Virus record (IMG/VR): IMGVR_UViG_3300037423_000907
Location: 1-54,326 of that record
Origin: a virus
Lineage: Duplodnaviria; Caudoviricetes
Direction: 5' to 3' (one strand)
DNA length: 54,326 nt
Below the pieces are notes generated by a model. It made no database searches. It was given only the letters and a program-made list of their open reading frames with translations, and had not been told where the DNA came from. The position numbers were made by a program, and so were the translations under genes. Below, piece after piece: positions 4,773-46,510 of this stretch (its first letter is position 1; every line of letters begins with the position of its first letter).

Positions 4773-4773
4773 C

Positions 4774-4817: not shown

Positions 4818-4841
4818 AGCTACCAACCACCTAAGGACAGC

Positions 4842-5234: not shown

Positions 5235-5299
5235 AGAACCGGGCTGTGCCCGCGAGCAAGCAGCCACATGTCTAGGCCGGATGGAAAAAGGAAATCTCG

Positions 5300-6748: not shown

Positions 6749-6933
6749 GCACCGCAAAGCAGATGTGGAAGGTTGAGCCCTGGGGGAAGTCATGGATGGT
6801 GATGCGGCCCGGCCCGGTCGGGCTTGTGCACTATGTGCGCAGCCCATGTGGTTGCGTCAAGTTTTTCCGCTCTCATCAGGCTGCACAGGCTGCCGCCGAT
6901 CAAAAGAACGCCATGCAGGAACCCAAGCAATGA
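6745..6933 (+). CDS. Hypothetical protein
   Basis: ATGA coupling; GGAG RBS. Confidence 0.55.
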   Translation: MSTAKQMWKVEPWGKSWMVMRPGPVGLVHYVRSPCGCVKFFRSHQAAQAAADQKNAMQEPKQ

Positions 6934-7211
6934 GCATCACCGTCAAAGAAGCCCACGAGATGGCCGCACGCGCCGCCTCCAAGGGTATCCGCATGACCTT
7001 CATCACGGCCAAGCCGCGCAAGCAACCCAGGGCCGGCGACCGTCGCGTGACGAAGAAGCACGGCGAGCAGGTGCGCGTCTTCCGCATCGTCAGGAACTTT
7101 CGCGGTGAACCGATCGGCTACGACTGCACCGGAGGCCGGCAGCGATACGAATGGGTATCGCTCGATGACCCGCGCGCCGCCCTTTACGTTAAGAAGGGCC
7201 AGAAGCAATGA
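6930..7211 (+). CDS. Hypothetical basic protein
   Basis: ATGA coupling on both sides. Confidence 0.55.
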   Translation: MSITVKEAHEMAARAASKGIRMTFITAKPRKQPRAGDRRVTKKHGEQVRVFRIVRNFRGEPIGYDCTGGRQRYEWVSLDDPRAALYVKKGQKQ

Positions 7212-8527: not shown

Positions 8528-8991
8528 GCCTTCCATACGAAAACGCAACCTCTGGCGGCGCCGCTCTGGAAGAAATCCGAAAGGTGCTGACGAAGTTCGG
8601 CTGCCAGCGCTTCGGCACGATGACAGACGTGGAGAACGGCGAGTTGATCGTGCAGTTCAGCTTCCGAGGGCGTGATGTTACGGCCCGTGCCTCCTATCGT
8701 GGCTACGCTGCTGCCTGGCTGAAGGAGCACCCTTACACACAGCGCACGCGCGGCTCGAAGGTTGACCACGAGCGCAAGGCGCTGAAGCAGGCAGAGACCA
8801 GCGTGTGCTCCGTGCTGCGCGACTGGATTAAGGGGCAGATCGTCGCCATCGAGACCGGCATTTTGACGTTCGAGGGCGCGTTCCTCGGCCAGATCCTGCT
8901 GCCCAGCGGCCGCACGGTGCTGGAGCAAGTCGCCCAGGCCAACATGCTGCCGCAGCTTCAGGCGCCCACCACCAGCAAGGAGGGCGAGTGA
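8524..8991 (+). CDS. Conserved phage hypothetical protein
   Basis: GGAGG RBS; GTGA coupling. Confidence 0.7.
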   Translation: MSLPYENATSGGAALEEIRKVLTKFGCQRFGTMTDVENGELIVQFSFRGRDVTARASYRGYAAAWLKEHPYTQRTRGSKVDHERKALKQAETSVCSVLRDWIKGQIVAIETGILTFEGAFLGQILLPSGRTVLEQVAQANMLPQLQAPTTSKEGE

Positions 8992-9305
8992 TGCCCCAAC
9001 TGATCATCCACAAGGACGGCGCCTACAACATCTTCAGCACGGTTGTGGATGCCTGCCATTACGAACCCGCGCTCACACTGGGGGAGCTCACCGAGGTGAT
9101 CCGCTTCGAGCAAGGACAGAACGGCATCGACCAGTTGCCGGCGCGCCTGGAGCGTGCACACCGCACCGGCTGTTCCTCCCTCGGCGGTGAGACGCTGGAG
9201 GAGTGCATTTGCTGCAACCGTGCCGGGCCGAACGAGTCGAGGCTGAGCTTCGATGACTTCGTCGCCAGGTTCCTCACGTTGCCGACGAAACAGGGAGGCG
9301 AGTGA
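8991..9305 (+). CDS. Hypothetical protein
   Basis: AGGAGG RBS; coupled. Confidence 0.65.
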   Translation: MPQLIIHKDGAYNIFSTVVDACHYEPALTLGELTEVIRFEQGQNGIDQLPARLERAHRTGCSSLGGETLEECICCNRAGPNESRLSFDDFVARFLTLPTKQGGE

Positions 9306-9712
9306 TGCCCATCCTCAAGAACGCGGACCTTTCCAAGATGTTCATCACCGAGCCGAAACGGCCAGAGCCGGTAACGCTGGTTGCGGAGATCAACGTCGAT
9401 GAAGAACTGATTCGCCTCATCCAATCCGACAGAACATATGCGGTCAATTTCATCAAGCGAATGTTGGCGCAACGGCTGCTGGACCAGATCACTGCGAGGT
9501 GCCTCCCGTTCGATGTGGAGGCCGGGCTGGATGACTTCCTCTACCGCCGCAAGCCGCTGCGTATGGAGGTGACGCTCGCCGACCGCGGCAAGTACGAGCA
9601 CTGGCTGCCGATAGAGCGCGAGGCTGGCCAACGCGAAGGCTTCATCGACGGCGAGAAGGCAGTGCGCCGCCGCCTCCCGCACGGCATTGACATCGACAGG
9701 ACGGACGAATGA
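9305..9712 (+). CDS. Hypothetical protein
   Basis: GGAGG RBS; coupled. Confidence 0.6.
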   Translation: MPILKNADLSKMFITEPKRPEPVTLVAEINVDEELIRLIQSDRTYAVNFIKRMLAQRLLDQITARCLPFDVEAGLDDFLYRRKPLRMEVTLADRGKYEHWLPIEREAGQREGFIDGEKAVRRRLPHGIDIDRTDE

Positions 9713-9993
9713 TGGCGGTCTACGTCGATGACATGCGCGCTAGCTTCGGCCGGATGGTGATGTGCCACATGGTGGCCGACACCACCGCCGAGCTGCTGGA
9801 CATGGCCGACCGGATCGGCGTCGCCAGGCGCTGGCTCCAGAAGGCAGGCACGCCGCACGAGCATTTCGACATCGCCCTGAGCAAGCGTGCCTTGGCTATC
9901 CAGCACGGCGCCGTCGAAATCGACCGGTACCAGCTGGTTGGCATCATCCGCGGCAGGCGCGAAGCTGCCGCAAACACAAGTGAACCGGCGTAG
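9709..9993 (+). CDS. DUF4031 family protein
   Basis: VYVDD...MCHMxAD...EL..MA.RIG..R.W.Q...HFDI...KR..A...GA signature. Confidence 0.85.
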   Translation: MMAVYVDDMRASFGRMVMCHMVADTTAELLDMADRIGVARRWLQKAGTPHEHFDIALSKRALAIQHGAVEIDRYQLVGIIRGRREAAANTSEPA

Positions 9994-10038
9994 GGGTACG
10001 CCAGAGGAGTCCGAGATGAGCAGTACAGGAGCACACCA

Positions 10039-10257
10039 ATGAGCCTCGTCACACAAGCATTTCTGTTCGAGAAGTACGGCCCTCGCCTGAACGCGGAACA
10101 GCTCGCCGAAGTCCTCGGCATCTCGAAGGCGGCGCTCTACAACCAGATCAGCTCTGGGACTTGCGCCGTGAAGACTTACCTGGAGTCGGGGAAGCGCTGG
10201 GCGGACTATCGGGACGTGGCCGAGCACTTCGACGCTGTGCGAGTACACGCGGCTTGA
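10039..10257 (+). CDS. xis: Excisionase-like HTH protein
   Basis: LNAEQLAEVLGISKAALYN helix-turn-helix; convergent with the integrase. Confidence 0.7.
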   Translation: MSLVTQAFLFEKYGPRLNAEQLAEVLGISKAALYNQISSGTCAVKTYLESGKRWADYRDVAEHFDAVRVHAA

Positions 10258-11254
10258 CCGCCGCCATGTCCTCGGGTCGCAAGTTCGTGTAGCGCTTCAG
10301 GTTGCGCCAGTCCTTGTGTCCCGTGACGAGAGCAACATGCTGGATCTCGTAGCCCTCCTCGAACAGCCGGCTCGTCCCTTCGTGGCGCATGTCGTGAAGG
10401 TGAAGGTCCGGGATCGACAGCTTGCGGCACGTCCAAGTGAAGTATTTGGACAGCGTGCCAGGCTCGATCGGGAACAGCCGCCCATCCTCGGAGTCCGGCT
10501 GGCGCTGCGCGATGTCCCAAGCCTCGCCGAGCAGCGGCACCCGCTCCAGCACCTTGCCTTTGCGGGGATGCTTGCGCCACACCGGGATGACGCGTGTTGC
10601 CGGGTCGATCTCGGTCTTGAGCACGGCGCACACCTCACCGCGGCGCATGGCCGTGATGGCAGCGAAGGCCACCGCCTCAGCGTAGACGAGGCCGTAGGTC
10701 GTAAGCATGTGATGCAGGATGCGCTGCATCTCGTCGTCGGTCGGCCTGCGCTCCCGCTTCCCGCCGCCGCCAATCAGCCGCAGGTGATGCAGCATCGGTC
10801 GCGCCGCGCCCACCACGTCAGGCAGCGTCACCTTCAGCTTCGCGCCGCCATAGCGCAGCACCGTGCCCAGCTTCGACACGTCCATGTTGATGGTGTACGG
10901 CCCGGCGCCGTCCTCGCGCCTAGACACGGCGTAGGCGATGAGGTCGTCCGGACTGAGCTTGCCGGCCACCCTCTCTCCCAGGCCCTTCTCCAGCGCCTTG
11001 AGCATGTAGTGCTCGTTCGAGGTGTCGAGGATGGGTCGCGCCTGGTCGCGGAGTTCCCGGTATGCCTGGATCACCTCACGCACCAGCAGCCTGCCCGGCT
11101 CGGCCTGAACCTGACCACCGTCGATCTCGCCCTCTCGGGCACGCGCCCAGGCGAGCGCCTGGGCCTTGGTGTCGAACGTCTTACACTGGGCCTTGTGCCC
11201 CTTGCGTCGGATCAGTGCTCGCCACCGATCCCCTATTTGCAGGATGCTCGCCAC
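10148..11254 (-). CDS. int: Tyrosine recombinase (phage integrase)
   Basis: MRRGE, K-H, HDMRH, GHKD and RY catalytic motifs. Confidence 0.93.
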   Translation of the reverse strand: MASILQIGDRWRALIRRKGHKAQCKTFDTKAQALAWARAREGEIDGGQVQAEPGRLLVREVIQAYRELRDQARPILDTSNEHYMLKALEKGLGERVAGKLSPDDLIAYAVSRREDGAGPYTINMDVSKLGTVLRYGGAKLKVTLPDVVGAARPMLHHLRLIGGGGKRERRPTDDEMQRILHHMLTTYGLVYAEAVAFAAITAMRRGEVCAVLKTEIDPATRVIPVWRKHPRKGKVLERVPLLGEAWDIAQRQPDSEDGRLFPIEPGTLSKYFTWTCRKLSIPDLHLHDMRHEGTSRLFEEGYEIQHVALVTGHKDWRNLKRYTNLRPEDMAAVKPRVLAQRRSARPRPDSPPSASPTPGKSSRRKSQS

Positions 11255-11426
11255 GTATCACTCCTCGTATCGCCGCGTATCTTTGCGGCTATGATACCGA
11301 CGGAGTTAGTTGGAGCGTCACAGAGCGAACGGACAACGCGATGCAGGGGCGCATTCCGCCCAGCCCGCCGTAGTTCAATGGGAAGAATCCCAGGCTCTTG
11401 TGACTTTCCGTATCAAACGGATATCA
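11254..11426. other. attP region: putative core 11364-11381 (CCCGCCGTAGTTCAATGG) with GTATC-type arm repeats
   Basis: Repeats at 11254, 11266, 11276, 11292 (inverted), 11409 and 11420 flank a core resembling a tRNA 5' end, next to int. Confidence 0.7.
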
Positions 11427-11436
11427 CTGGAGCTAC

Positions 11437-11802
11437 ATGGGAACCGTCGTCGAACTCGGCCAGCGGCTGAGGATCACCCGCACAGCCGAACAGTGCCAGC
11501 TTGACCGGATCGCGCGACGCGATGCCGAGAGGAGCGCGAAGGCGTGCGCCCTTGCTGCCAAGCGCAAGGCGGCGATTCTGCGGCGGACGCCGCCCTGGGC
11601 TGACCTTCAGGCCATCCGAGCCATCTACGCCCAAGCAGCGCGCGCCACGCGCCTGACGGGCATCCCTCACCACGTTGACCACATCGTGCCGCTTCAGGGC
11701 GAGCTGGTCAGTGGGCTGCATGTGCAAAACAACCTGCAAGTCCTAACGGCAACGGAGAACCGCAGGAAGTGGCACCACTTTTCTACTCAGGAGCTGACAT
11801 GA
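11437..11802 (+). CDS. HNH endonuclease
   Basis: TPPWAD...HHVDHIVPL...GLHVQNNLQV...EN. Confidence 0.85.
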   Translation: MGTVVELGQRLRITRTAEQCQLDRIARRDAERSAKACALAAKRKAAILRRTPPWADLQAIRAIYAQAARATRLTGIPHHVDHIVPLQGELVSGLHVQNNLQVLTATENRRKWHHFSTQELT

Positions 11803-12215
11803 CCGATCCCACCCCCACCGGGGCAATCCCCTCTGACCGAGAGTTGCTGGAGCTTGCTGCGAGAGCCTCTGGCATGCCGGTGCTGCCCTTCGACCAACCG
11901 TGGGGGCCGGGCGCCACCGGCTGGTTCTACAACTCGAATGGCGGCTCCGGCATGTTCAGCGTGGACGGCCCGAAGCGCTGGAATCCCCTCACCGACGATG
12001 GCGACGCTCTGCGGCTAGCGACGAAGCTACGGATCGACCTCTATCACTACGCTGGGGCGATGAACCACGGGGAGCCTGACTACGTGCAGGCCGTCCCGTG
12101 TGACGGCAATCCCGAAGGCGCGAGCGTGCTGGAGAACAGCAATCAAGACCCCTACGCCGCCACCCGCCGCGCAATCACCCGCGCTGCCGCTGAACTCGGG
12201 AGGGCCGCAGCATGA
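11799..12215 (+). CDS. Conserved phage hypothetical protein (WNPLTDDGDALRLA family)
   Basis: AGGAG RBS; paralog of 5608..5949. Confidence 0.75.
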   Translation: MTDPTPTGAIPSDRELLELAARASGMPVLPFDQPWGPGATGWFYNSNGGSGMFSVDGPKRWNPLTDDGDALRLATKLRIDLYHYAGAMNHGEPDYVQAVPCDGNPEGASVLENSNQDPYAATRRAITRAAAELGRAAA

Positions 12216-12739
12216 GCGGCCCCTCTACCCTGCCCGACCGGATCAGTGCCTACCTTTCGGGTGGAGGCCTGTTCAACCCGGAGATGGCTGACCACGACGC
12301 AGTTCGAGACCTGCTGATCGAGTGCCGGGATGCTCTTGCCCATCCGACCTCCACGCTCCGGCAAGAGGCATGCGACGCTGCTGCGTCGGAGCCGGTAGCG
12401 TGGCAGTGGCGCAAGAAGGGCGACCCGTGGACGCTTGAGCGAACGTTCAATTCCGAGGTGTTCGCAACGACGGATGACACCGAGGTTCGCGCGCTGTACG
12501 CCTCCCTCTCTCCTGCTCCGCAAGCAAGCCCGGATGAGTGGGCCGAGTTTGATGTGCTGGGATACACCGGGAACGACGTAGAGCAGGTTGCAGGAGCGTC
12601 CGGACCCAGAGAGAAGGCACTACGCGAGGCCCTGTGGTACGTGCAAGACTGCCTGTCGGAGTATGACCGTGTCGAGGTGCAGCAGGTCAAGCGCACCATG
12701 GTCGCAGCTATGTCCGCCACTTCGGGAGCCAAGCCATGA
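12212..12739 (+). CDS. Mosaic hypothetical protein
   Basis: ATGA coupling; EPVAW module typical of phage accessory ORFs. Confidence 0.65.
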   Translation: MSGPSTLPDRISAYLSGGGLFNPEMADHDAVRDLLIECRDALAHPTSTLRQEACDAAASEPVAWQWRKKGDPWTLERTFNSEVFATTDDTEVRALYASLSPAPQASPDEWAEFDVLGYTGNDVEQVAGASGPREKALREALWYVQDCLSEYDRVEVQQVKRTMVAAMSATSGAKP

Positions 12740-13251
12740 CCGGCCCCGTCCAACTGCTGGTCGGCCTCGCGCTTCTGGCTGGCGTCGTTCTGCTGGGCTG
12801 GCTTGTGCACCGCTTCACCAAAACCGTCGTGCCCTACGAGGCCGGCGAAAGAAGGGAGAATCTCAAGGAGGCGCCGCGCGGACCGAGCTACGCGATGACC
12901 TATGCGGTTCTGATCGTGATCACAGCCATCTGCGCACTGATCCTTCTGTGGCTAATCGCGGCGTTCGGGTATGCGACTTACTGGACGTGGGGAAACTACG
13001 GGCCTGCAGCGCTCGTGCCTGGCGTCATCACCGCGGCGCTGGTCGGCGTCCTGCCATCGGCCGCAACCCACTTGCATGCCTATTGGTCGTCTGTGAACGA
13101 AGAGCGGGGGCGTCTTTCCGTCAAGGCCGACACCAGGCCAGACTTCGGCATCCACAAAGAGTCTGAGGAGCCCGTGCGCAATGATGGCGGCGGGTACGAG
13201 TGGAAGGATGGCAGGATCACCAGAGACCAGAAAGGCAAGGAACCGCTATGA
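12736..13251 (+). CDS. Membrane protein with about 3 TM segments
   Basis: Three hydrophobic stretches; coupled. Confidence 0.7.
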   Translation: MTGPVQLLVGLALLAGVVLLGWLVHRFTKTVVPYEAGERRENLKEAPRGPSYAMTYAVLIVITAICALILLWLIAAFGYATYWTWGNYGPAALVPGVITAALVGVLPSAATHLHAYWSSVNEERGRLSVKADTRPDFGIHKESEEPVRNDGGGYEWKDGRITRDQKGKEPL

Positions 13252-13466
13252 CCGCACACGCGTACTTTCTCGTTCTCTGCTTTTTCAACGGTCCGTGCGG
13301 GGTTGTCCAGATGGATGTCAATGCGCAGACGTGTAACAAGACGCTCGCTGCATTTGAGTTGTCCGAGGCGCTTCTGGTCAAGAACGGTCGTGAGAGGACC
13401 GTCGCGCTTGCTCAATGCAGAGATATGGGCGACGGGAAGCTTCTCGCGCAGTTCGCTCCCCACTGA
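13248..13466 (+). CDS. Small Cys-containing protein, possibly exported
   Basis: AAGGA RBS; ATGA coupling. Confidence 0.55.
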   Translation: MTAHAYFLVLCFFNGPCGVVQMDVNAQTCNKTLAAFELSEALLVKNGRERTVALAQCRDMGDGKLLAQFAPH

Positions 13467-20490: not shown

Positions 20491-20521
20491 ATCGTCACCG
20501 CCTGGAGCCGCAAGGGTTTGT
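20491..20521 (-). promoter_or_regulatory. Late promoter motif upstream of the tailspike gene
   Basis: ACAAACCCTTG-N14-GACGAT. Confidence 0.75.
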
Positions 20522-23056: not shown

Positions 23057-23242
23057 GTGCGAATCGCTCTGCTTGTCCTCGTCATCTTCGGCTGCACCCT
23101 GGTGCCGGCCGTTTTTGTCTGGGGCAACTCAGGCAGCTTCAGGACCGCCGTCTCGGTGTGGTGGTCGTTCTCTCGGTACCTGTTGGTGCTGGCCGTGCCC
23201 GGCATCATCACGTCGATCTGGTTCGGCATCTTCGGCCCCTAG
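23057..23242 (+). CDS. Small two-TM membrane protein antisense to the late operon
   Basis: Fills the gap between two ejection genes; two TM segments. Confidence 0.6.
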   Translation: MRIALLVLVIFGCTLVPAVFVWGNSGSFRTAVSVWWSFSRYLLVLAVPGIITSIWFGIFGP

Positions 23243-25476
23243 AAGCCGAACGACAGCGCGCACTCGGCTGCAGCGCGCAGCAGGTCGGCGTCTGACCGCT
23301 CCATGTCAGCCTCTTCCTTGGCCTTGGCCAGTGCCTCCTTCAGGCTCAGCTTCTCGTCGCTGCCCGGCAGCACCACCTGCAGGTCGGGCTTTTCCTGCGC
23401 GAGCGCGGCGGTGCGCTGGGCGTCGAGGCTGGGAGCTTCTCCGGCCGGTGCAGAGCCACCCTCACCTCGCGCGCTCGGCTCGCCGGGAGCGGCTTTGTCA
23501 GGCGCTGCCGCGGCTTCGGCATCAGGGAACGGGCGCGGCGCGAGCGCGGCAGTATCAATCTTCGGCGGTGAAGGCTCGATCTCGATGCTGTGCTGGTCTG
23601 GGATGGCGTTCGCCGAGTCAACGATGCGTTCGACTGGCGCGCGAGGGGCGGGCCTGTTCACTTGCGTGATCTCGTTGCCGAAGTGGACAGTCTTGCCGCC
23701 GTCCCACAGTTCGACCGGCGTCATGCCAACAGACGGCTCGCGCTGAGGGGTCACCACCGTGCGAGCCTCGAACTTGCCGGCGTCCGGACCATCGGTGTAG
23801 CGCATGCCGATGCGGCCATCAGGCATCTCGGCGATCTGCGCCGGTGCGCGGCCCTTGGTCTGGATCTCGGCGAGCGCCTGCGCCTGTTCTGGCGTCAGGT
23901 AGTAGGTTGCCCGGGACGTTGGTTGCGGGCCAGCATCGCCTTCGTGCCCGACATCCGAACGCGCCGCCTTGTTCCTGGTCGTCACGCCGCCCTCGCCCAC
24001 TTCGTAAGTAGAGCCGCGAGCCGTGGTGAAGGTGATCGGCTCCGGCGGCGCAGCAAGGTGAGGAACACGGCCGGCGGCCAGTTCGTCGGCTGCGGCAAGC
24101 ACTTCTGAGCGTGCCTCTGGGTGCGCCGGCATGGACTGCATCAGCGCCTGATCCAGCACCTGCACCCGCGCCGCCGCCACCACATCCGGATCGGACGCGC
24201 CGCGCTGCGCCGTGTGCTCCTGCGCGTACTTCTTGACGCGCTCCAGGTAGGCGGCCGTCTCTGGGAAGGTCGGCTTGCCGCCGCCGCGCACGATGGCCGC
24301 CTGGGCGCCGCCGCCGTTGTAGTGCGCCACCGCGGCATCCCAGGAGCCGTAGGCGTCGTAGAGCTGGCGCAGGTACCGCGCCGCGCCGTCGATGCTTTGC
24401 GCCGGGTCCGTGCGGTCGGTGATGCCCAGTTCCTTGGCCGTGCCAGGCATGAACTGCATGACGCCTTGCGCGCCCTTCGGACTGGTGTCACCGCTGCCGG
24501 ATTTCTCACCGGCGTTCTTGATGCCCAGCAGGATGGCCGCCGGCACGCCTTCGCGCTCGGCCGCCTGGGCGGCGTAGGCGTCGAGCTGCGGGGCGTTGTA
24601 CTTGAGCGAGCGCCGCTCCGTCTGGCTCATCTGGTCGAGCGGCACGCCGCCCGCCTCGATGGCCGCGCCGCGCTTTTGAAGGCTGCGGATGTGCAGGCCG
24701 CCGAGGGCGCCGGGGACCGCGACGGACAAGGCCAGGCCTAACGGATCCAGCGGGTCGTGCTGGGCAGCGAGCTCCGGGTACTTGGCCTTCTGCAGGATGT
24801 CCTTGGTGAGCTGCTCCTGCAGGATGTATGCGCCCGGGCCGGTGCCGGCAGCGAGGCCGATTGTGCTTCTGACAGTGCTGCCCACGCCCGGGATTCCAGC
24901 GGTGACGCCGGAAACGACGCCGGTGACAGCGCCCACCTTCGCCGCCGTCTTGTCATCCACGCCCTGCGTGCGCAGTCGTTGGGTGGTCGTGTTGCCCTCG
25001 TCCAGACCGAAGGCGACCGGCCCGGCCACTGGCCCCAGCAGCATGGTCTCGCCGACGGCCTTGGACACGCCGCGGACCAGGCCGTGCACTACCCGATCGG
25101 CGGTGTGAGAGGTGGCCGGGTCGGGCGCGAACTCGTCTGCCTTGCGGCGCAGCTCGTTGCCAAGCCGCGTGTCCATGGCCTGGCCTTTGATCACCCGTTG
25201 CCGCGCCTGCTCGGCCTGCTGCTTCTCCGCGTCGCTCTCAGTTGAGAACATGCCGCCCGCGCTGCCGCCGGTCGAGGCGAGCGTGGCGCCGAAGCCGGAC
25301 AGCGCATCCAGCAGGCTGCCGTGCGCCTCCAGCCCACCGGTCACGGGGGCTTTGCCGCCGGCAGCCAGGAAGCTCCAGGTCGAGAACGATTCTGGCGGCG
25401 GTGCAGCGCCGGGGTTGCGCAGGTCGCGCTGGAACGCCTGCTCCAGCCGGTCGGAATAGGCATCGAGCAGGCCCAT
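23239..25476 (-). CDS. Internal virion protein with a lytic transglycosylase (SLT) domain
   Basis: E-x-S...SPKGAQGVMQFMPGT...AVAHYNGG...ET..Y motifs. Confidence 0.85.
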   Translation of the reverse strand: MGLLDAYSDRLEQAFQRDLRNPGAAPPPESFSTWSFLAAGGKAPVTGGLEAHGSLLDALSGFGATLASTGGSAGGMFSTESDAEKQQAEQARQRVIKGQAMDTRLGNELRRKADEFAPDPATSHTADRVVHGLVRGVSKAVGETMLLGPVAGPVAFGLDEGNTTTQRLRTQGVDDKTAAKVGAVTGVVSGVTAGIPGVGSTVRSTIGLAAGTGPGAYILQEQLTKDILQKAKYPELAAQHDPLDPLGLALSVAVPGALGGLHIRSLQKRGAAIEAGGVPLDQMSQTERRSLKYNAPQLDAYAAQAAEREGVPAAILLGIKNAGEKSGSGDTSPKGAQGVMQFMPGTAKELGITDRTDPAQSIDGAARYLRQLYDAYGSWDAAVAHYNGGGAQAAIVRGGGKPTFPETAAYLERVKKYAQEHTAQRGASDPDVVAAARVQVLDQALMQSMPAHPEARSEVLAAADELAAGRVPHLAAPPEPITFTTARGSTYEVGEGGVTTRNKAARSDVGHEGDAGPQPTSRATYYLTPEQAQALAEIQTKGRAPAQIAEMPDGRIGMRYTDGPDAGKFEARTVVTPQREPSVGMTPVELWDGGKTVHFGNEITQVNRPAPRAPVERIVDSANAIPDQHSIEIEPSPPKIDTAALAPRPFPDAEAAAAPDKAAPGEPSARGEGGSAPAGEAPSLDAQRTAALAQEKPDLQVVLPGSDEKLSLKEALAKAKEEADMERSDADLLRAAAECALSFGF

Positions 25477-31661: not shown

Positions 31662-31745
31662 TGGAATCGCTCCGTCATTGCAAGCCGCCGTACTGTCTGA
31701 CGACGACGGCGCAATGGTTTGTGCAGGCCGCGCCCCCTCGTTCGA

Positions 31746-37221: not shown

Positions 37222-38109
37222 TCAGGCTTCCGAGCACTTGATCTCGTACACGCGCTTGTTGTCGCGTCGCACGGCGCCGAAGTGCCCTTGGCCGTAGACC
37301 TGCCACGGATGGCCGCGCAGATCCTTGCGCTGGCTGATGTCGGTCTGGATGCCGCCGTTCCAGGTGCAGAAGCTCATGCCTCGCTGGAAGAAGAACGGCA
37401 CGCGGCGGTAGCTGGAGGCGTCCGTGCCGAGGCGGTTGCTGACGATGAAGTTGATCGTCAGGAACTTGTTGACCGAGTTCGTGGCCATGACCTGGCCCTT
37501 GAAGAAGTCACCCGAGGTGACCTCGATCTCGTTCATCAGGTTCTTCTTCTGCTTCGGCGAGATCACGCAGTAGGCCTGCTCGACCTCGGTGTCGATCTCG
37601 TTGACCTGGGCCAGCTCGAACGCCTTCTGCAGCTTCTCGACGTTGAGGCCGGAGGCAGTGCCGCCTTCGTTGACGCTGACTTGGTTGGCTGCCGGGAAGG
37701 ACTCGCTGGTCGAGCCGTTCTCGCCCACATTGCGGTCAGCGAAGAAGGCGCGGACGGACTCATCGTCCATCTTGCGGTTCAGCGCGGCAACCACGCCCAT
37801 CACGTACTCGGACTGCGGATTCGCTTCCATCTGCATCTGTTCGATGCTGTCGAAAGGGATCGCCTTGTCGAAGTGGCGCGGGTACACCCAGGGGCGGGTG
37901 TGGGTCGGCTCGCCGAACACCACCGGGTCATAGATGCCGGTGCGCTCGTCGGCCTCGAAGGCGTCGATGAAGTTGACGACCGTGGCGCTCTTGCCGACGG
38001 CAGTCATGGTGGAGAAGACGCTCGCGATGCGCGGCGTCAGTTGTTGAGCCAGCAGTTCGACTGCGGTCGCATACTGCTGGCTGTAGAAGGCATTGGAACC
38101 GGCGGCCAT
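37222..38109 (-). CDS. Major capsid protein
   Basis: QY...VELL.QQ start, A.NRK.D and GA.R C-terminal motifs; follows the scaffold gene. Confidence 0.88.
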   Translation of the reverse strand: MAAGSNAFYSQQYATAVELLAQQLTPRIASVFSTMTAVGKSATVVNFIDAFEADERTGIYDPVVFGEPTHTRPWVYPRHFDKAIPFDSIEQMQMEANPQSEYVMGVVAALNRKMDDESVRAFFADRNVGENGSTSESFPAANQVSVNEGGTASGLNVEKLQKAFELAQVNEIDTEVEQAYCVISPKQKKNLMNEIEVTSGDFFKGQVMATNSVNKFLTINFIVSNRLGTDASSYRRVPFFFQRGMSFCTWNGGIQTDISQRKDLRGHPWQVYGQGHFGAVRRDNKRVYEIKCSEA

Positions 38110-38282: not shown

Positions 38283-38313
38283 ATCGTGTTGCTTGCGATG
38301 CACAAGGGTTTGT
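38283..38313 (-). promoter_or_regulatory. Late promoter motif upstream of the capsid leader
   Basis: ACAAACCCTTG-N14-CACGAT. Confidence 0.75.
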
Positions 38314-38326: not shown

Positions 38327-38354
38327 AAAGAAAAAGCCCGCCGAAGCGGGCTCT
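38327..38354 (-). terminator. Intrinsic terminator after the scaffold gene
   Basis: AGCCCGC-TTCG-GCGGGCT stem followed by TTTTCTTT. Confidence 0.85.
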
Positions 38355-38370
38355 CTTGACGCGTACTGAG

Positions 38371-39695: not shown

Positions 39696-39820
39696 AGAGT
39701 GCACCCTTCGTGCAGTTCTCCAGCCCGGTATCCTCGTGTGGCGATGCGCCTGGTAAACACCCCTGTATTGGGGTCGTAAGACACAGCTTCGCGAACACGC
39801 ATTGCGGTCAACTTGCTCAC
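39692..39820 (-). pseudogene. 42-aa remnant of an HNH(-AP2) endonuclease N-terminus
   Basis: MSKLTAMRVREAVSYDPNTGVFTRR...RAG; GTGA and ATGA coupling on the two sides. Confidence 0.65.
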
Positions 39821-41460
39821 AACGTCGCTCTTCCCGCGTTGGCTTGCATTTTCGTCAGATTGGCGGCGGCGGCGCTCACCTGCGGAGCGGCTTCCACGAG
39901 ACTGGCCATCTGCTGCTGATTGGCCCGGTCCTCGGCCATCGCCTTGATTTGGTCAGGGTCGCGCAGGATCTTGGCCGGCACGCCGTTGATTTCTGCCACC
40001 TCGCGCGCGGCGGCTTGCATGTCGATCACATCGAGCACGCTCGGATCAGCCTGAGCCATCGGGATCACTGCTTCAAGCGTCCGCGTGATGGCGATCGCCT
40101 CGCTGGCGCGCATCGCTCGGCGAGCAGGCGAGGTGTATTCGATCTTGTATTCGCCCTGCGCCTCGATCATTTCGGGCGGCGGTGGCGGCAATTGGTTGGC
40201 GTTGGCCAGCAGGTCGAGCTCGCGCTCTGTGCCGGGGCTGAATCCTTCGCTTTCGATCCTCCCAATGATGGGAGACATCAGCGTCGCCCGCTCCTGCATG
40301 ATCTCCAGCGCCTGGGTCGCCGTCATCTGCGGGTTCTCGACAAGTGCGCGGAACACATCCAGCAGGAACGCAGACGAGATGATCTCGCGCTCCTTGTCCA
40401 TCATCTCCATGCCGATGCGGACATCTGCACCGGTGATGAGTGGTTTCACCAGCTGGTTGCCATTGGGGTCAAGGCCGCCGAAGTTCAGCGCACCGGGAGC
40501 CATGGAGAACGCGCCGAGGACACCATCCTCAGACAGCAGCAGTGGAGGATCGGCCACGAGCTGCGCGGCCTGCAGGATGCTGCGCTTCTGCGAGTTCAGC
40601 ACCTTGATGTCAGAAAGTGCGAGCCATGCCGGTGAGCGGCCGTAGATCTCACCCGGACTGGTCATGTAGCGCATGACCATGAAAGGCCAGGAGCGGAACC
40701 CGCCCTCCTCTAGCGAGTGCTTCTCAGCCGGCAGGAAGTAGCACGACGCCCACGGCATGCCACGGTAGCCAAGTTGCCCCCGCTGGTAGTCCGTACGTGG
40801 CATCACGCACTGGACGACATCCACCTTGTCATCCGGATGCGTCTGCAGGCGCTTCTGGAGCTTCTCTGGCAGCTTGCCGGGGAAGCGCTGGTTCAGCTGG
40901 CGCAACGTCCAAGGCCAACACCGAAACAGCGTGTCAACAACGCCTGAATCGTTCTCCAGAAGGTAGGTCTGCGCCAAGTGCAGCGACTTGTAGCGCAGCG
41001 AAAACCCCTGCGCACGCTTGGCCAGCACGTCGTGGACGTTGTCATCGATGAACAGTACGCCGGTGCCGAACACGAAGAACTGCAGCGCGGCCTCGCCCAT
41101 CTGGGCCTCGAAGGCGGCGCGTGGCGAATACCTGGCGGCGAACAGTCGCTTCGTCCACTCATCCATCGCCACCTTGACACGCTGCGACTGGTTCAGTGAG
41201 TCATCGCTGGTGGTCAGCTTCTGGTACGTCTGGTTGCTCGGCCAGCAGAATGTCGAGATTGCTGCGACTGCGTTGCGCGCGGCGAGCGCAGCAGTGGCGT
41301 CGTACATCAGGCTGGTGCGACGCTCGCCATCCGTGCGCTTGCTGGTGAAGTCGGCCGCCTGAGGCAATACGCGATCCGCGATCTGTTGCCACAGTGTCTC
41401 CCAGTTGGCGCGGGCGACCTTAGCCGCCTCGAACCTGCGCATCAGGTAATCGAAGTCCAT
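39817..41460 (-). CDS. Portal (head-tail connector) protein
   Basis: W.QIA..VLP, FGTG, GEIYGRSP and MTAT motifs. Confidence 0.93.
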   Translation of the reverse strand: MDFDYLMRRFEAAKVARANWETLWQQIADRVLPQAADFTSKRTDGERRTSLMYDATAALAARNAVAAISTFCWPSNQTYQKLTTSDDSLNQSQRVKVAMDEWTKRLFAARYSPRAAFEAQMGEAALQFFVFGTGVLFIDDNVHDVLAKRAQGFSLRYKSLHLAQTYLLENDSGVVDTLFRCWPWTLRQLNQRFPGKLPEKLQKRLQTHPDDKVDVVQCVMPRTDYQRGQLGYRGMPWASCYFLPAEKHSLEEGGFRSWPFMVMRYMTSPGEIYGRSPAWLALSDIKVLNSQKRSILQAAQLVADPPLLLSEDGVLGAFSMAPGALNFGGLDPNGNQLVKPLITGADVRIGMEMMDKEREIISSAFLLDVFRALVENPQMTATQALEIMQERATLMSPIIGRIESEGFSPGTERELDLLANANQLPPPPPEMIEAQGEYKIEYTSPARRAMRASEAIAITRTLEAVIPMAQADPSVLDVIDMQAAAREVAEINGVPAKILRDPDQIKAMAEDRANQQQMASLVEAAPQVSAAAANLTKMQANAGRATL

Positions 41461-41468
41461 TCGGGCCT

Positions 41469-41669
41469 TCAGCTACCCAGCAGTTGCTTGGCCGCGGTCA
41501 CCGGCGCTTGCATTCCGCCGCCCGGCTGCTGGCTCAGAATCGCCGAGGCACGGCCGCGGCGCTGGCGCAGCAAATCAGCCTGCTCCTGGGCTCTGGCTGC
41601 GGTGTCCTCGATGACTGGAGGGGGCGGTGCTGGCGTCGGAGCGGGAATGTTCGGGCGAAGGAATCCCAT
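41469..41669 (-). CDS. Small conserved pre-portal virion protein
   Basis: Pro-rich; RRGRASAIL...KQLLG motif. Confidence 0.75.
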   Translation of the reverse strand: MGFLRPNIPAPTPAPPPPVIEDTAARAQEQADLLRQRRGRASAILSQQPGGGMQAPVTAAKQLLGS

Positions 41670-41694
41670 GTGGCACCTCGTGTCGTGGTGCCAA

Positions 41695-41725
41695 ACTGTC
41701 CCGCTGTGGGCTCACAAGGGTTTGT
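41695..41725 (-). promoter_or_regulatory. Late promoter motif upstream of the pre-portal and portal genes
   Basis: ACAAACCCTTG-N14-GACAGT. Confidence 0.75.
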
Positions 41726-41732
41726 TCAATAG

Positions 41733-42127
41733 GACAAGCCGAGTGGTGACTGGCACCAACTTCGCCCACCCCGATGAGGCCAGCGCTCGCGTGACGGCTC
41801 GATTCAGTTTCCAGGGCGCCCGTGTCGTGGGCCAATCGTTTGTCACCTTGCTACCCTGTTCACGGCGGTCGCTCGGCAACGCCACCTGCGCCGGCTTGTC
41901 AGTTCAGCGCACTCGCTTTTCTCGTCGGCAGCCACGAACAGGGGTTCACTGCTTCGTCACGGCGCGAACGGTACGCACACGAAAAAGCGCCCTTAAGAGT
42001 GCGTTCCCGTGATGCTTTTGCCGAGCGGGTGACCGAGTGACGGCATTGCTGCCGCGACTTGCGAGAACGCACGCCTAAGGGCGCTGTGCAGAATTCTACT
42101 CGGTGACACGCTCGGCAAGAGGTGACT
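41733..42127 (-). ncRNA. Putative ~400-nt structured RNA between terminase and portal
   Basis: Own late promoter; several long helices with G-U pairs on the minus strand; GCAA tetraloop; no credible ORF. Confidence 0.7.
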
Positions 42128-42133
42128 GGCACA

Positions 42134-42164
42134 ACTTTCGTTTGAACGACTGGCAAGGGTTTGT
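42134..42164 (-). promoter_or_regulatory. Late promoter motif driving the non-coding region
   Basis: ACAAACCCTTG-N14-GAAAGT, directly after the terminase stop. Confidence 0.75.
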
Positions 42165-43610
42165 TCAGTCGATCGGCTCGTGGCGGACTGCGTGGCGCTG
42201 GCGGCCAGCCGCAGCATTGGGATTGCGAACCACAATCTTTGCCTCGCCACCGCCCATCATCATGTACTGTCCAGCCTCGCAGGGATGGCTGTAAGCGTTC
42301 TTGTCGGGCTTGTCGCGATACCGCTCGTCGCTAGAAACTTTGACTCGCTTGAATGCATAGCCGCCTTGCAAGCCTTTGCGCGTTACCTTGCAGTCTGGGT
42401 GGATGAGAAATCCAGGCTCTCCGTCCACCATGCGCCTCATCGCCGAAGCCACCACTTCTGTTCGGATGGCGAAGTCATTAGTGCTGGCCGGCCTTGCTTC
42501 AACCCCGTTCGCCTTTAGTAACTGGAAGACCGTCCTCTCTTCAGAGTCTCCGACTTGGCGCTGGTCACCAGCTGGGTCGCCGGTGATTGCATTGATGGCC
42601 CAATCTTTGTAATGGGTGCCGATGAATACTTTGAGCTCGCCCGCAAACCGGATGACGCCCGTATTTGTGGCCACCAGTTCTCGACGCCATCTCCACTGCC
42701 CGCCCAGCGTGCGCTGGCCGATGATGGCGGCCGGAGTTAGCCCAAAGTCAAGCCCAACATAGAGACCGAGGGCTTGCACCAGTTCAAATGTGCGGCAGTG
42801 AGTTGAGTCCTTGTACTCCGGCCAGACGGGCCTCCCGTCCGCCACGAAGCCGTATTCGTTCGCCAGATTGACCTTGATCCAGTCCTCTGACTTGCCCTGC
42901 ACCCCTTTCGCATAGTACCCAGGCGGCAGGTTGCCCAGATTCTCAGCGTGCGGATTCTCTTCCCACGGCGAATCTTTGTCGGCGCGAACAACGCCGCCCG
43001 GCTGTCTGAGGAACACCCAGCCCTCCGGGCGTTTCTCTTCGGCCATGGTGTAGTACCAATGGTCCGTGTCAGGGGCATTGGAGTCACCGAAGATTCCGTA
43101 CCAGGTCGGCTCGACGTCTTTGGGATAACGGCCGATCCGAAGATCGACCATCTCAATGACGGCGAACGGCAGTTCCTTTGTCTCGTTCAACCAGGCTGCA
43201 GTGAGTTGGAAGCCGCGCAGCTTACGGACATGCTCCTCCCGGTCCAGGGCCAAGAACACCATTTCAGCCACAACCCGGGTTCCGTCATCCAGTTCAAAGT
43301 CCAGGTTGTGCGTCGGCGGCTCCAAACCGCCTTTGATGAAGTTCCCCAGCGGCTCGAACATATCGAGCCAGTCCTTGATAGTTGTGCTGAAGAGATCTCC
43401 GTAAGTGTTTCGAACCGCCAGAATGCGCGTGCGTCTCACCCCGTCGGAGTCCGGTGCCTGGCCACACATGATTCGAAACGCCTTCCAGCACGAGGCGTTG
43501 GTCTTGCCAGAGCCGAGCGGGCCCATGATGAAGGTCCGCTGGGATGCGCTGAGGATGTACTCCTCAAGCGTTGCGCCCTGCGGCTTGTAGGTGAATTCAA
43601 CCTGACGCAT
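42165..43610 (-). CDS. terL: Terminase large subunit
   Basis: Walker A GPLGSGKT, Walker B WLNE, DSNAP, nuclease GLDFGLTPA, SH..EA.QY. Confidence 0.93.
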   Translation of the reverse strand: MRQVEFTYKPQGATLEEYILSASQRTFIMGPLGSGKTNASCWKAFRIMCGQAPDSDGVRRTRILAVRNTYGDLFSTTIKDWLDMFEPLGNFIKGGLEPPTHNLDFELDDGTRVVAEMVFLALDREEHVRKLRGFQLTAAWLNETKELPFAVIEMVDLRIGRYPKDVEPTWYGIFGDSNAPDTDHWYYTMAEEKRPEGWVFLRQPGGVVRADKDSPWEENPHAENLGNLPPGYYAKGVQGKSEDWIKVNLANEYGFVADGRPVWPEYKDSTHCRTFELVQALGLYVGLDFGLTPAAIIGQRTLGGQWRWRRELVATNTGVIRFAGELKVFIGTHYKDWAINAITGDPAGDQRQVGDSEERTVFQLLKANGVEARPASTNDFAIRTEVVASAMRRMVDGEPGFLIHPDCKVTRKGLQGGYAFKRVKVSSDERYRDKPDKNAYSHPCEAGQYMMMGGGEAKIVVRNPNAAAGRQRHAVRHEPID

Positions 43611-44241
43611 CAACACTCCGGTTCCGGCCTGTCAAGTCTTTGACGATCACACGCACGCCAGCCTTGTCGTCCTCCTCGTCCAAGCCGAAGGCCTTACGCT
43701 CTGCTGCCTGAAGCTTGGTCATTGCCTCGGCAAGAGCCTTGATCGAGGCGACACGGTTACCAAGGCCGATTGCCTTGGATACCACGCGTCTGGCCTCTGC
43801 CTCATCTTTGGGCTCCGCACCATCACCTGCAAGGATCTGCGCCAAAAGCTCCTGCTCTTCAGCCAGCAACGCGCCATTGCGCAGCTCGGCCAGCAAATCG
43901 GCCAATGCATCGCGCGCCTCGCGGATGTCGCCTCGGTGTTGGAGTATCACCTGCTTGTTCACCTCGGCAGCCGCCAAAACGGTATTGGTAACCGCTTGGC
44001 TACTGTTGGCCACCTCCCTGGTAACCGCCTCCTCGATCAGCTTGGCGTTCGTAGCCGCCTTGACCGCTTTGCTAAGGTCCTGCGTCCATCCATGCTTCTT
44101 GACCTGTTTGCCGATTGCGGCGTGGGTGCAGCCGTACTTCTCCCCCAACTCGCGGAGGGTGAAGTTCCCGGCGCGATAGTCTCGCTCCACTGCGGCCCAG
44201 TCCACCTTGCCGCGCTTCTTGGCTTCTTGCTTTGGTGTCAT
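43597..44241 (-). CDS. terS: Terminase small subunit
   Basis: DW.A.E.DYRAG...HTH...ERKAFGLD; upstream of terL. Confidence 0.8.
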   Translation of the reverse strand: MTPKQEAKKRGKVDWAAVERDYRAGNFTLRELGEKYGCTHAAIGKQVKKHGWTQDLSKAVKAATNAKLIEEAVTREVANSSQAVTNTVLAAAEVNKQVILQHRGDIREARDALADLLAELRNGALLAEEQELLAQILAGDGAEPKDEAEARRVVSKAIGLGNRVASIKALAEAMTKLQAAERKAFGLDEEDDKAGVRVIVKDLTGRNRSVDASG

Positions 44242-44435
44242 GGCGATGATCCATCGGCTGGCAGAATCGGCACGAGACCAGCCGGTGTCACCCAGCTTGC
44301 CGGATGCCCTGGCGCGATGCAGACGATGCGATCCCCGCAGACGCTCAGCTGGGCGCCAGGTGGAGCCTCACAGACGAAGCGCAGTCCGGAACGTTGTGGT
44401 GCCGGATCAGCTGGGCCAGTTTCGTTCTGGCTCAT
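44238..44435 (-). CDS. Hypothetical protein
   Basis: ATGA-coupled on both sides. Confidence 0.45.
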   Translation of the reverse strand: MSQNETGPADPAPQRSGLRFVCEAPPGAQLSVCGDRIVCIAPGHPASWVTPAGLVPILPADGSSP

Positions 44436-44821
44436 ACCGTCACCATCCCACGCTGCTTGCGCTTCCCGCCGAGCGGCTTCACAGACGGCTGCGGGGTCGG
44501 TTTGGACGCGACCGATGCGGGAGGCCAGTTCGGCAGGTTAACCACCACCTCCGGGGCTTTCGCTCCTTGAGGAACCCGGTATGGCGCCGTGACCTCCTGC
44601 GTCGGGAGGGCTGACCGCTCCTTGCCGGTGGCCTTCATCCAAAGCACTACCATGGCCTCGCCACGCCAGTACAGCGGCTGGACGCCGAGCTGGTAGTGCC
44701 GGATCATGTTCGGCGTCATGACGGTCCCAGTGGCGTCACCGATCTGCCGGTAGTTCAGACCGGTTTCCACGATGTCCTCGATCATGCGCGCCCAGTCAGG
44801 GGCGGTGTGTGGCTTTCGCAT
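44432..44821 (-). CDS. HTH DNA-binding protein, candidate late-gene regulator
   Basis: AAGGAG RBS before ATG 44821; DW..MI.D....G....QI...TG HTH-like motif; sits at the early/late junction. Confidence 0.6.
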   Translation of the reverse strand: MRKPHTAPDWARMIEDIVETGLNYRQIGDATGTVMTPNMIRHYQLGVQPLYWRGEAMVVLWMKATGKERSALPTQEVTAPYRVPQGAKAPEVVVNLPNWPPASVASKPTPQPSVKPLGGKRKQRGMVTV

Positions 44822-44979
44822 TCCCAACTCCTTTTCAGTGCTTGGTGTCCGGTTTCTGTGGGCGGGCTTCGGACGCGCCCGCTGGTTTGAACCATCCCAC
44901 CACCCAAGCCCCAAGATCCCAGGCGGTGGTGACGATGAGGAAGATGATGAATCCCAGTCCTTCGTCTGTTTGGCTTCGC

Positions 44980-45219
44980 TCACGCCTTCACTCCTTCCAG
45001 CTTCTGAATCCACGCCCAAACTGCGACTCTGCCTTTCTGGTACTCAGCCTGTTCTGGCCACGTCATGTGCATGAGCGCCTGCAAAGCTGCCGGGTCTCGC
45101 TCCCTGGCCTTAGCCTGCGGGCCGGCAGCGATCTGCCTGGCGTCGCATTGCAGGCAGCCGGATTGGAAGACTCCTGTGCGTGGATGAGCGTTAGCGCGCT
45201 CACATGCTGGGCAGCTCAT
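44980..45219 (-). CDS. CxxC...CxxC zinc-binding hypothetical protein
   Basis: ATGA coupling; CPAC and CLQC. Confidence 0.6.
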   Translation of the reverse strand: MSCPACERANAHPRTGVFQSGCLQCDARQIAAGPQAKARERDPAALQALMHMTWPEQAEYQKGRVAVWAWIQKLEGVKA

Positions 45220-45347
45220 ACACAAAAGATCGCGAGGAGGCCGACGAACAAGACCCATCCGCTATATTCGATGCGGAAGTACAGTCCAGCCATACCGAGT
45301 AGAACCAAAGCCATGGCCATGAATGCGCCGATATAGTTCGCTTTCAT
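45216..45347 (-). CDS. Small membrane protein
   Basis: Two hydrophobic segments; coupled. Confidence 0.55.
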   Translation of the reverse strand: MKANYIGAFMAMALVLLGMAGLYFRIEYSGWVLFVGLLAIFCV

Positions 45348-45649
45348 CTTGTCCTTTCCTTCGCCCATTCCAATGCCTTGACCGCCTCTTCGAGGCTCGA
45401 TACCTTGCTTGTGATCCGCCATGCGTAGCGGTGCCATTGCTCTTGAGCTGCGGTGAGCTTCTGAGCGCTGAGCTTCTTGCTGCCGTCCTTGAGTTCCAAA
45501 AAGTGCGGCATGCCAGGAGCGATGGCGACCACCAGGTCGGCAACCCCTTCGCCAGCTGCCGACAGGTCGCCAACATCCCAGCCGAGCGCCCTCAGCCCAT
45601 CACGGATGTGGGCGTGGTTGGCGTCGGTGCGGCGGGCGTAGCGTGGCAT
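45344..45649 (-). CDS. VRR-NUC-like PD-(D/E)xK nuclease, putative junction resolvase
   Basis: R.D.NH..I...LR..G...G.ADL...LELKDG...LT..Q..W motif. Confidence 0.8.
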   Translation of the reverse strand: MPRYARRTDANHAHIRDGLRALGWDVGDLSAAGEGVADLVVAIAPGMPHFLELKDGSKKLSAQKLTAAQEQWHRYAWRITSKVSSLEEAVKALEWAKERTR

Positions 45650-45657
45650 GGCTTCTC

Positions 45658-45816
45658 TCAGGGTTTCACCAACCAAACCAGGAGGTTCACCAAGGCGATC
45701 AGCGCTGCCGGCGGCGCAAGGATCAGAAGCAGCGTCAGCACGATGTCTCTGTCTCGCTCTGGGTTGTGGTGGGTGTTTCGGCCTTGGTTCCACGAGGGAT
45801 CGTCTTCTGGTTTCAT
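45658..45816 (-). CDS. Small membrane protein
   Basis: ATGA coupling; C-terminal TM. Confidence 0.5.
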   Translation of the reverse strand: MKPEDDPSWNQGRNTHHNPERDRDIVLTLLLILAPPAALIALVNLLVWLVKP

Positions 45817-46256
45817 CCTGCCGTGCCTTCGCTTGAGTTGCATGCGGCTCCTTTGGAGCCGGCACGGCGCTCCCTGTCCGTCCGCTCGTCGCCGAGAGAT
45901 TTGCCGTGTGTCACGAAGAATTTCTGCCTGCATTCGCGGCAGGCATCGGCCTCCTGAATGGAGAGCCAGCGGTTTGGTCGCGTGCGATGCTCATAGTTGC
46001 CACAGTCACATCGGACAACCCATGCCCCAGGCTTTTCGGAGAGCCCAACCAACGTCATCCTGTCGCGTCTACGGCCAGCGAGCGAATGAAGATTCGATGG
46101 AATGGCGGCGTTGAACGGCTTCACCACGAGAGGAACTTCGCTCGTGACTTGGTCGCACTCCTTTAGCGCCGGCTTCCATGCAGTGCCTTTCGATGTGACG
46201 CGAGCTGCGAGAGAATCCACTGCGGCGGATGTCAGAAGCTTGTCAAACGTGCTCAT
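45813..46256 (-). CDS. Zinc-binding hypothetical protein
   Basis: WVVRCDCG...CREC; GAGGAGG RBS. Confidence 0.65.
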   Translation of the reverse strand: MSTFDKLLTSAAVDSLAARVTSKGTAWKPALKECDQVTSEVPLVVKPFNAAIPSNLHSLAGRRRDRMTLVGLSEKPGAWVVRCDCGNYEHRTRPNRWLSIQEADACRECRQKFFVTHGKSLGDERTDRERRAGSKGAACNSSEGTAG

Positions 46257-46510
46257 GCTGCCCTCCTCATCTCGATCACTGCCCCTGTTTCAGGCAGCGG
46301 CTCGCCGCCGTCAGGATCGTCGTCAGGCCCATCCTCCTGAACGACTTCCGCGTACAAAAGTTCGGCGATGTACTTCAGCATTTCGCTTTGATAACGGCTC
46401 TGCTCCGCGATGGTCGCAATGCCTTTGCAGGCTCTTTCCACGCAAGAAGCTGCCCTCCACACGCACGCCATCCACACGATCGCGAGCGACCAAAAGATTA
46501 GCTCGTTCAT
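46253..46510 (-). CDS. Small membrane-anchored protein
   Basis: GGAGG RBS; N-terminal TM. Confidence 0.55.
   Translation of the reverse strand: MNELIFWSLAIVWMACVWRAASCVERACKGIATIAEQSRYQSEMLKYIAELLYAEVVQEDGPDDDPDGGEPLPETGAVIEMRRAA

Follow-up and report, generated by a model that had tools for sequence, protein, structure and literature searches.

Interleaved inverted repeats in a lineage-specific, motif-flanked non-coding insert between the terminase and portal genes of a phage from a soil metagenome

A 425-bp non-coding insert downstream of the large terminase subunit gene (terL) carries two long inverted repeats whose arms are interleaved. The repeats are real and statistically striking, the insert that holds them is lineage-specific and flanked by a late-promoter-like motif, and it belongs to no described family. 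The model that we consider most likely, tentatively and with a probability of about 0.35, is that this cassette gives rise to a bistable minus-strand leader or short RNA of ~147 nt with terminator/antiterminator-like behaviour.

The window, i.e., the whole stretch of DNA analysed here, is a single IMG/VR virus record of 54,326 bp with an estimated completeness of 92%. All genes from ~14 kb to 54 kb lie on the minus strand. The terL product shares 63–74% amino acid identity with TerL of BcepC6B-like phages, the nearest named relatives of the terL DNA are the Burkholderia phages BcepC6B, KL4 and E332, and further TerL relatives occur in assemblies of Rhodoferax, Variovorax, Ramlibacter, Pigmentiphaga and Burkholderia. 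Other phage genes encode an integrase (10148–11254), a gp01-like regulator (44432–45019), an O-like replication protein, a DnaB-like helicase and DNA methyltransferases. Judged by this gene content, the phage is a temperate podophage of BcepC6B/BPP-1 type with TerS/TerL and an integrase, and its host was probably a soil betaproteobacterium. The record resembles a permuted temperate phage genome with its break in the early/immunity region (1–13300 and 45000–54326); an operon on the plus strand occupies 1–9.7 kb, and a replication module with two methyltransferase genes lies at 47.6–52.9 kb. A contig of 12,016 nt spans 41300–42500 without a single difference; it comes from a DNA run that is probably the source of the window and is thus not independent, and the match excludes only an error peculiar to one assembler. 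The coordinates of the features are collected in Table 1.

Table 1 Features of the insert and its surroundings (positions in the window)
Feature	Position	Strand	Remarks
terS	43597–44241	-	upstream of terL
terL, 483 aa	42165–43616	-	upstream neighbour of the insert; weak Terminase_6N and PHROG terL matches
ORF-free gap, 495 nt	41670–42164		between terL and the 66-aa gene
Insert proper, 425 bp	41729–42153		flanked by the 14-bp repeats; occurs once in the record
14-bp direct repeat TGAACAAACCCTTG, copy 1	42154–42167	-	exact; contains the P1 motif
P1 motif ACAAACCMTTG	42154–42164	-	at the terL stop, faces into the insert
-10-like hexamer GAAAGT	42134–42139	-	14 nt past the P1 motif
D1a, 23-nt direct repeat	42118–42140	-	83% to D1b; spans the presumed start of the P1 transcript (~42127)
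Arm B'	42098–42121	-	5' arm of helix B
Arm A'	42062–42085	-	5' arm of helix A
Hairpin h, 5-bp stem CGGCA-GCAA-UGCCG	42041–42054	-	GCAA (GNRA) loop
Arm B	42015–42038	-	3' arm of helix B
Arm A	41986–42009	-	3' arm of helix A
Partial third copy of A' sequence	41970–41990	-	palindrome I4, direct repeat D3
Run of five U, terminator-like	41981–41985	-	adjoins the GC-rich foot of helix A
B' core TTGCCGAGCG, third exact copy	41870–41879	-	I9, D8; alternative partner of arm B
Degenerate sixth motif copy ACAAACGATTG	41833–41843	-	one mismatch; next comes a P2 leader-like fragment
D1b, second copy of the 23-nt direct repeat	41742–41764	-	13 nt upstream of the P2 motif
14-bp direct repeat TGAACAAACCCTTG, copy 2	41715–41728	-	contains the P2 motif
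66-aa gene, BcepC6B gp04 counterpart	41469–41669	-	37–42% identity matches in four relatives
Portal, T7-type head-to-tail connector	39817–41460	-	PF12236, E 5e-110
Bbp19-like gene			between the portal and major capsid genes in gene order
Major capsid gene	37222–38109	-	
Bipartite motif sites	20491–20521, 31692–31722, 38283–38313, 41695–41725, 42134–42164	-	

The gap downstream of terL reflects, as comparison with related loci indicates, a lineage-specific non-coding insertion. We compared 68 terL-related loci (59 viral and nine genomic), 19 of which have a T7-type portal gene downstream. In all 19 portal-bearing relatives an ORF of at least 55 aa begins 8–99 nt past the terL stop, and none of them has an ORF-free stretch longer than 100 nt after terL. 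Excision of the insert together with one copy of the 14-bp repeat would leave a gap of ~59 nt between terL and the 66-aa gene, close to the ~60 nt found in many relatives (88 bp between terL and gp04 in BcepC6B). In four of the 19 (L020, L022, L025 and L035) an additional ORF lies between terL and portal, of 172 aa in L022 and 128 aa in L025; these ORFs differ and mark the terL/small-gene junction as an insertion hot spot. Both the nature of the site and the gap size restored by excision thus speak for an insertion. The stop codon of terL (TGA, 42165–42167) falls within copy 1 of the 14-bp repeat, and between the end of the P2 motif and the 66-aa gene downstream there are 45 nt. Recombination at the late-promoter motif of the phage itself is the probable origin of the insertion. 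Within the insert (41821–41843, minus strand) TTGGC-CCACGACACG comes after the degenerate motif copy; this stretch looks like the P2 promoter-leader (41672–41725) with an internal deletion and may be the trace of a local duplication. The closest TerL relatives (L004–L016, terL 64–74% identical) have no T7-type portal gene within 4 kb downstream, so terminase and head modules are mosaic in this phage group.

The region had been described as poor in ORFs, and this is borne out: the ORFs of the gap show no GC3 bias, none is a plausible small gene, comparison with Pfam and PHROG gave no match at E below 0.06, and tblastn of two of the ten listed ORFs against phages gave none at all. No tRNA, tmRNA or tandem repeat was found. 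In Rfam searches the window had no match at gathering score; with hits allowed up to E 10, 41300–42500 and 41960–42140 yielded only sub-threshold generic hairpins of the miRNA-precursor kind. No riboswitch or leader family was matched, nor was any known aptamer, leader peptide or ligand pocket recognised. The preliminary description's statement that this is not a known family is therefore in agreement with the Rfam search, and in the portions of the literature available to us no RNA is described between terminase and portal in the BcepC6B/BPP-1-type group.

Homologues of the insert were sought at several levels. Blastn with the 495- and 425-nt regions gave no match among INPHARED phages, and none was found in PLSDB plasmids. 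Across 62 loci (59 IMG/VR terL loci, two phage records and the phage's own locus) blastn and nhmmer returned the self-hit and chance matches of up to 30 nt. Altogether, 807 Burkholderiales genomes were searched for the insert: five genomes with terL relatives gave matches of 17–33 nt only, and 401 genomes from the order and 401 from the family to which one of these five belongs gave single GC-rich matches of 24–43 nt in two and six genomes, respectively. These short matches occur in either orientation and were judged to be due to chance. Pattern scans of IMG/VR found three unrelated matches to the B-arm pair, none to the A-arm pair and, with D1, nine unrelated low-GC matches. A portal-based search for closer relatives retrieved none from IMG/VR or from genome contigs and one metagenome contig of 2042 bp (79% identity), which ends inside the small gene; among 401 Burkholderiales genomes the best portal match (69% identity) is on a contig that breaks off inside the portal gene, and terL was not found in that genome.

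Several classes of element were considered and set aside. A REP/REPIN or MITE is contradicted by the single copy in the record and by ends that carry direct, not inverted, repeats; the same five, 401 and 401 Burkholderiales genomes, which need not include the host, yielded only isolated GC-rich matches of 22–43 nt. A CRISPR-repeat mimic, group I or II intron, retron and type III antitoxin were dismissed for want of an Rfam match, reverse transcriptase or tandem repeats, and terL is full length. A sigma-54 reading of TGGCAC in D1 (plus strand, by eye) has GC at -12 in one copy only and points against the genes.

The most prominent feature of the insert is its pair of interleaved inverted repeats, which on the plus strand follow the order A, B, small hairpin, A', B'. 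The coordinates given for the two crossing helices in the preliminary description proved exact. Each has arms of 24 nt that are complementary at 21 positions (88%), and in a ranking of all inverted repeats within 150 nt across the 54-kb window they take the first two places. When the 495-nt gap was shuffled 300 times with dinucleotides preserved, the best 24-nt repeat reached 15–19 of 24 positions, and no shuffle attained 20. On the minus strand helix A comprises 23 of 24 pairs, including two G-U (-39.4 kcal/mol), and helix B 21 of 24 (-29.5 kcal/mol). The GNRA hairpin reported between them is present as well; its loop is of the GNRA type on the minus strand only, and reads UUGC on the plus strand. 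Four A-C mismatches that would become G-U pairs had been taken as support for the minus strand, a reading that did not hold for the two main helices: helix A gains two G-U pairs on that strand, helix B shows the opposite case with one G-U on the plus strand, and summed over both helices there are 44 pairs on the minus and 43 on the plus strand, and the summed energy of the helices is equal. Only two of the six arm mismatches are G-U on the minus strand, about as many as random change would produce.

The arms belong to small repeat families. All exact copies of the 10-mer TTGCCGAGCG in the 54 kb, three in number, lie in the gap, and 41870–41879 complements 42018–42027 perfectly over 10 nt, as had been noted. 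Sites of this type lie at 41736 (from reading the sequence by eye), 41870, 42018 and 42109, and A-type sites at 41970, 41986 and 42062. Both families thus count three to four copies in both orientations and are found within the 54 kb in the gap alone; copies in direct orientation (D1, D3, D8) are also present. The partial third copy of A' would allow arm A to fold back locally over the U run. The second crossing set of pairings that had been proposed for 41733–41961 (a 9-bp repeat, I12; an 18-nt repeat of 78%, I5; and a 7-mer) exists in the letters and is at chance level: a perfect inverted repeat of at least 9 nt is contained in 14% of 500 shuffles of 41729–41985. Elsewhere in the window, another pair of interleaved inverted repeats (25013–25029 with 25112–25128, and 25057–25073 with 25164–25180; 17 nt and 88% each) lies in a 745-aa ORF (23239–25476). 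About two such 17-nt repeats are expected by chance in 54 kb by a rough estimate; their interleaving at one spot is odd.

The motif ACAAACCMTTG occurs in five exact copies, all intergenic and on the minus strand, which is that of the late genes: upstream of the tail-fibre gene (20521), the gene starting at 31661 (31722), the capsid gene (38313) and the small gene/portal block (41725), and at the terL stop (42164). With up to one mismatch there are six matches against 0.81 expected, and none of 100 shuffles reached six. Three of the five exact copies end 45–50 nt before a start codon. A hexamer SAMRRT follows 14 nt after the motif at all five copies, a pattern derived post hoc from these same five sites. 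The motif is probably the phage's late promoter or an activator site. It was not found in the loci of the relatives, and a scan of IMG/VR for the bipartite form gave four matches, all in unrelated contigs. The preliminary description had assigned the region a late promoter of its own; this is reasonable, as a full copy of the late-type motif does stand at the upstream edge, and it is from this motif that P1 would take its status as a promoter. A canonical intrinsic terminator with an 11-bp stem, a UUCG-type loop and a U run is located on the minus strand at 38331–38356, between a putative scaffold gene and the capsid copy of the motif, and is followed by a capsid leader of ~165–190 nt.

If transcription proceeds on the minus strand, the RNA from P1 would contain, in this order, D1a, B', 12 nt, A', 7 nt, hairpin h, 2 nt, B, 5 nt, A and UUUUU, with connecting loops between the arms of 12, 23 and 5 nt. 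As the 5-nt linker is too short to span a 24-bp helix, helices A and B cannot both be complete in one strand, which agrees with the earlier remark that such long helices do not easily coexist; the exclusion is topological, with no strand shared between them. At the base of helix A AGCGCCC pairs with GGGCGCU and is directly followed by UUUUU (41985–41981), an arrangement like the stem and U run of an intrinsic terminator. The helix closes a loop of 52 nt, against 3–8 nt in compact terminator hairpins, and a consensus terminator scan of 41300–42500 called none.

Structure beyond chance is confined to a part of the region. The 156 nt at 41975–42130 fold better than their shuffles (z of -4.59 on the minus and -3.64 on the plus strand), the entire 495-nt gap is not beyond chance (-1.38 and -0.98), and the 257 nt at 41729–41985 fold no better than shuffles (+0.50). 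The suggested RNA of ~400 nt is not supported, as the structured part measures ~150 nt. Downstream of the U run about 215–250 nt are at chance level, then follow D1b, 13 nt and P2; between the U run and D1b lie just the B' core 10-mer, in its third copy, and the degenerate form of the motif. When folding of a growing transcript was modelled, the RNA of 116 nt adopted the B':B fold (-52.5), A':A was the minimum free energy structure once the RNA ended at the U run (-65.3), and 6 nt past the U run B':B returned together with a local fold-back of arm A over the U run (-69.1). With B' held unpaired, read-through adds 4 bp to helix A past a 5-nt bulge. In these predictions the element would have the behaviour of a two-state element in which an early-forming helix hinders a terminator-like one, and the conformational switch raised in the preliminary description is a fair reading of this anatomy.

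These observations can be combined into the following model. A non-coding cassette of 425 bp would have entered the terL/small-gene junction via recombination at the late-promoter motif. P1, if it is a promoter, would start a minus-strand transcript near 42127, the first ~147 nt of which would comprise B', A', the GNRA hairpin, B, A and UUUUU. The B':B helix would form first and trap A' in its loop, and the stronger A':A would be hindered. In one state, transcription from P1 and from terL would end at 41981 with release of a short structured RNA; in the other it would read on, with arm A folded back over the U run, the choice between them being set by a putative trigger. The model is favoured by repeats far beyond chance in a structured core of 156 nt, by the stronger helix abutting UUUUU and the GNRA loop on the minus strand only, by the recurrence of the P1-type motif upstream of late-gene blocks, by the alternating folds of the growing transcript and by the arrangement of terminator, then late motif, that the phage also uses upstream of the capsid gene (38356–38331). 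Against it stand the lack of a homologue of the insert in the searched sets, pairing of equal quality on both strands with mismatches that show no wobble bias, the 52-nt loop and the empty terminator scan, repeat copies in direct orientation that RNA pairing does not require, a putative promoter whose motif is absent from the relatives' loci and whose -10-like hexamer was defined post hoc, and a stretch past the U run that is featureless beyond chance. A bolder version, in which a cassette that moves from one late-gene junction to another by recombination at the late-promoter motif encodes an RNA of ~150 nt that acts as a topological two-state switch or pairs in trans into multimers late in infection, is a long shot.

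Several other explanations were weighed against this model. The insert may be a neutral relic, i.e., a functionless scar of illegitimate or promoter-motif-mediated recombination such as a decayed moron, with its inverted copies made by local template-switching or duplication; we regard this as only slightly less likely than the model above. Its absence from all 19 same-order relatives and from every set searched, the duplicated promoter/leader fragments in the gap (D1a/D1b, the degenerate sixth motif copy), 250 of 425 bp without a feature beyond chance and arm mismatches unbiased towards wobble pairs would all be expected of such a scar. Yet two repeats of 21/24, a third copy of the 10-mer and a partial copy of A within 250 nt are much order for decaying DNA, the U run coincides with the foot of the stronger helix, and the upstream edge retains a full motif copy; moreover, at least two events would be needed, since one template switch yields nested, not interleaved, arms. 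Action at the level of DNA, with the A-type, B-type and D1 repeats bound by a regulator, recombinase, nucleoid protein or the terminase small subunit, appears rather doubtful. Repeat families of three to four copies in both orientations that are restricted to the gap within 54 kb, D1 twice in direct orientation and a strand-symmetric pairing quality are as expected of DNA sites. However, an essential site (pac, cos or ori) is unlikely in an insert missing from all 19 same-order relatives, an attP would presumably be placed beside the integrase gene, the order A B .. A' B' has no dyad symmetry, and arms of 24 bp are long for operator half-sites; neither an invertase nor a partition gene was present among the ORFs scanned, and contigs of one run showed no alternative joint of the kind that an inverton or shufflon would leave.

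Explanations at the RNA level other than the switch fare less well. A processing or stability site, at which RNase III would cut a helix in the late transcript and separate terL from head-gene mRNA, is improbable; helices of more than 20 bp with few mismatches in an intergenic position of a late operon would suit it, and the extension of helix A on read-through, by 4 bp past a 5-nt bulge, resembles sib, but the interleaving, the U run and the dedicated motif copy would be left unexplained, and no homologues were found. The preliminary description had suggested a late RNA of ~400 nt, perhaps oligomerising via the crossing helices, that serves in packaging or assembly like phi29 pRNA, or else a large ornate phage RNA. 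The position between terminase and portal invites this idea, and helices that cannot both form in cis might conceivably pair in trans. We consider it very improbable indeed: neither Phage_pRNA, GOLLD and ROOL nor any further Rfam family was matched, structure is limited to ~150 nt, the phage is of a different type from phi29, and the order B' A' .. B A, read directly from the sequence, bars a colinear duplex between two molecules. The 19 relatives use the same terminase/portal set and all lack the insert, so packaging does not need it and a core packaging role is argued against.

At present the insert is a single orphan sequence from a single soil metagenome, a well-defined candidate and not a discovery. 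Should the RNA reading be true, it would represent a leader or short RNA of a phage in which switching comes about through the crossing of helices instead of competition for a shared strand, as well as a 'moron' with a non-coding payload that is spread via promoter-motif recombination. Both would extend the short list of regulatory RNAs from phage late regions.

Among known systems, phi29 pRNA is an early transcript encoded at a genome end; it is required for packaging and forms a ring on the connector by loop-loop pairing between molecules. The insert would likewise be a phage non-coding RNA near packaging genes, but it resides in a temperate phage with TerS/TerL and an integrase, not in a small protein-primed podophage, and is not kept in relatives. 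From the large ornate RNAs (GOLLD, ROOL, OLE, HEARO, raiA), whose conserved multi-helix structure extends over several hundred nt, it differs in that no Rfam model matches it and only ~150 nt fold beyond shuffles. The intergenic R sites of T7 and the lambda sib element are RNase III sites formed by single hairpins with an internal loop; long imperfect helices in intergenic late or read-through transcripts are a common trait, whereas the insert has an interleaved pair of helices and no sequence similarity to them. Comparable in genetic organisation are morons and the PeSL cassettes of T4-type phages, the latter being promoter-flanked shuffling cassettes. Like these, the insert is lineage-specific, lies between conserved late genes with its own promoter-motif repeats and a terminator-like end, and occupies a site where relatives carry other inserts; it differs in that its payload has no ORF.

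The lambda PR'-tR' unit ('6S RNA') and StxS of Stx phages combine a late promoter with a terminator within ~150–200 nt, and a short non-coding RNA is made unless read-through occurs. The insert is similarly phage-borne, on the late-gene strand, with a late-type motif followed by a terminator-like stem. In contrast to them, the loop closed by this stem is 52 nt long and a second helix of 24 bp competes with the stem, neither a Q-type antiterminator nor a qut site was identified, the location is between terL and portal and not ahead of the whole late operon, and the sequences are not similar. Attenuators and riboswitch platforms have helices that exclude each other, with a U run at the end of one of them; the predicted folds of the insert, in which the 5'-proximal helix can form first, would be of this kind, but it has no sensing part, as judged by the lack of a match to leader or riboswitch families and of a plausible small ORF. 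In classical attenuators the competing helices share a strand (2:3 versus 3:4), whereas those predicted for the insert would exclude each other by crossing (1:3 versus 2:4).
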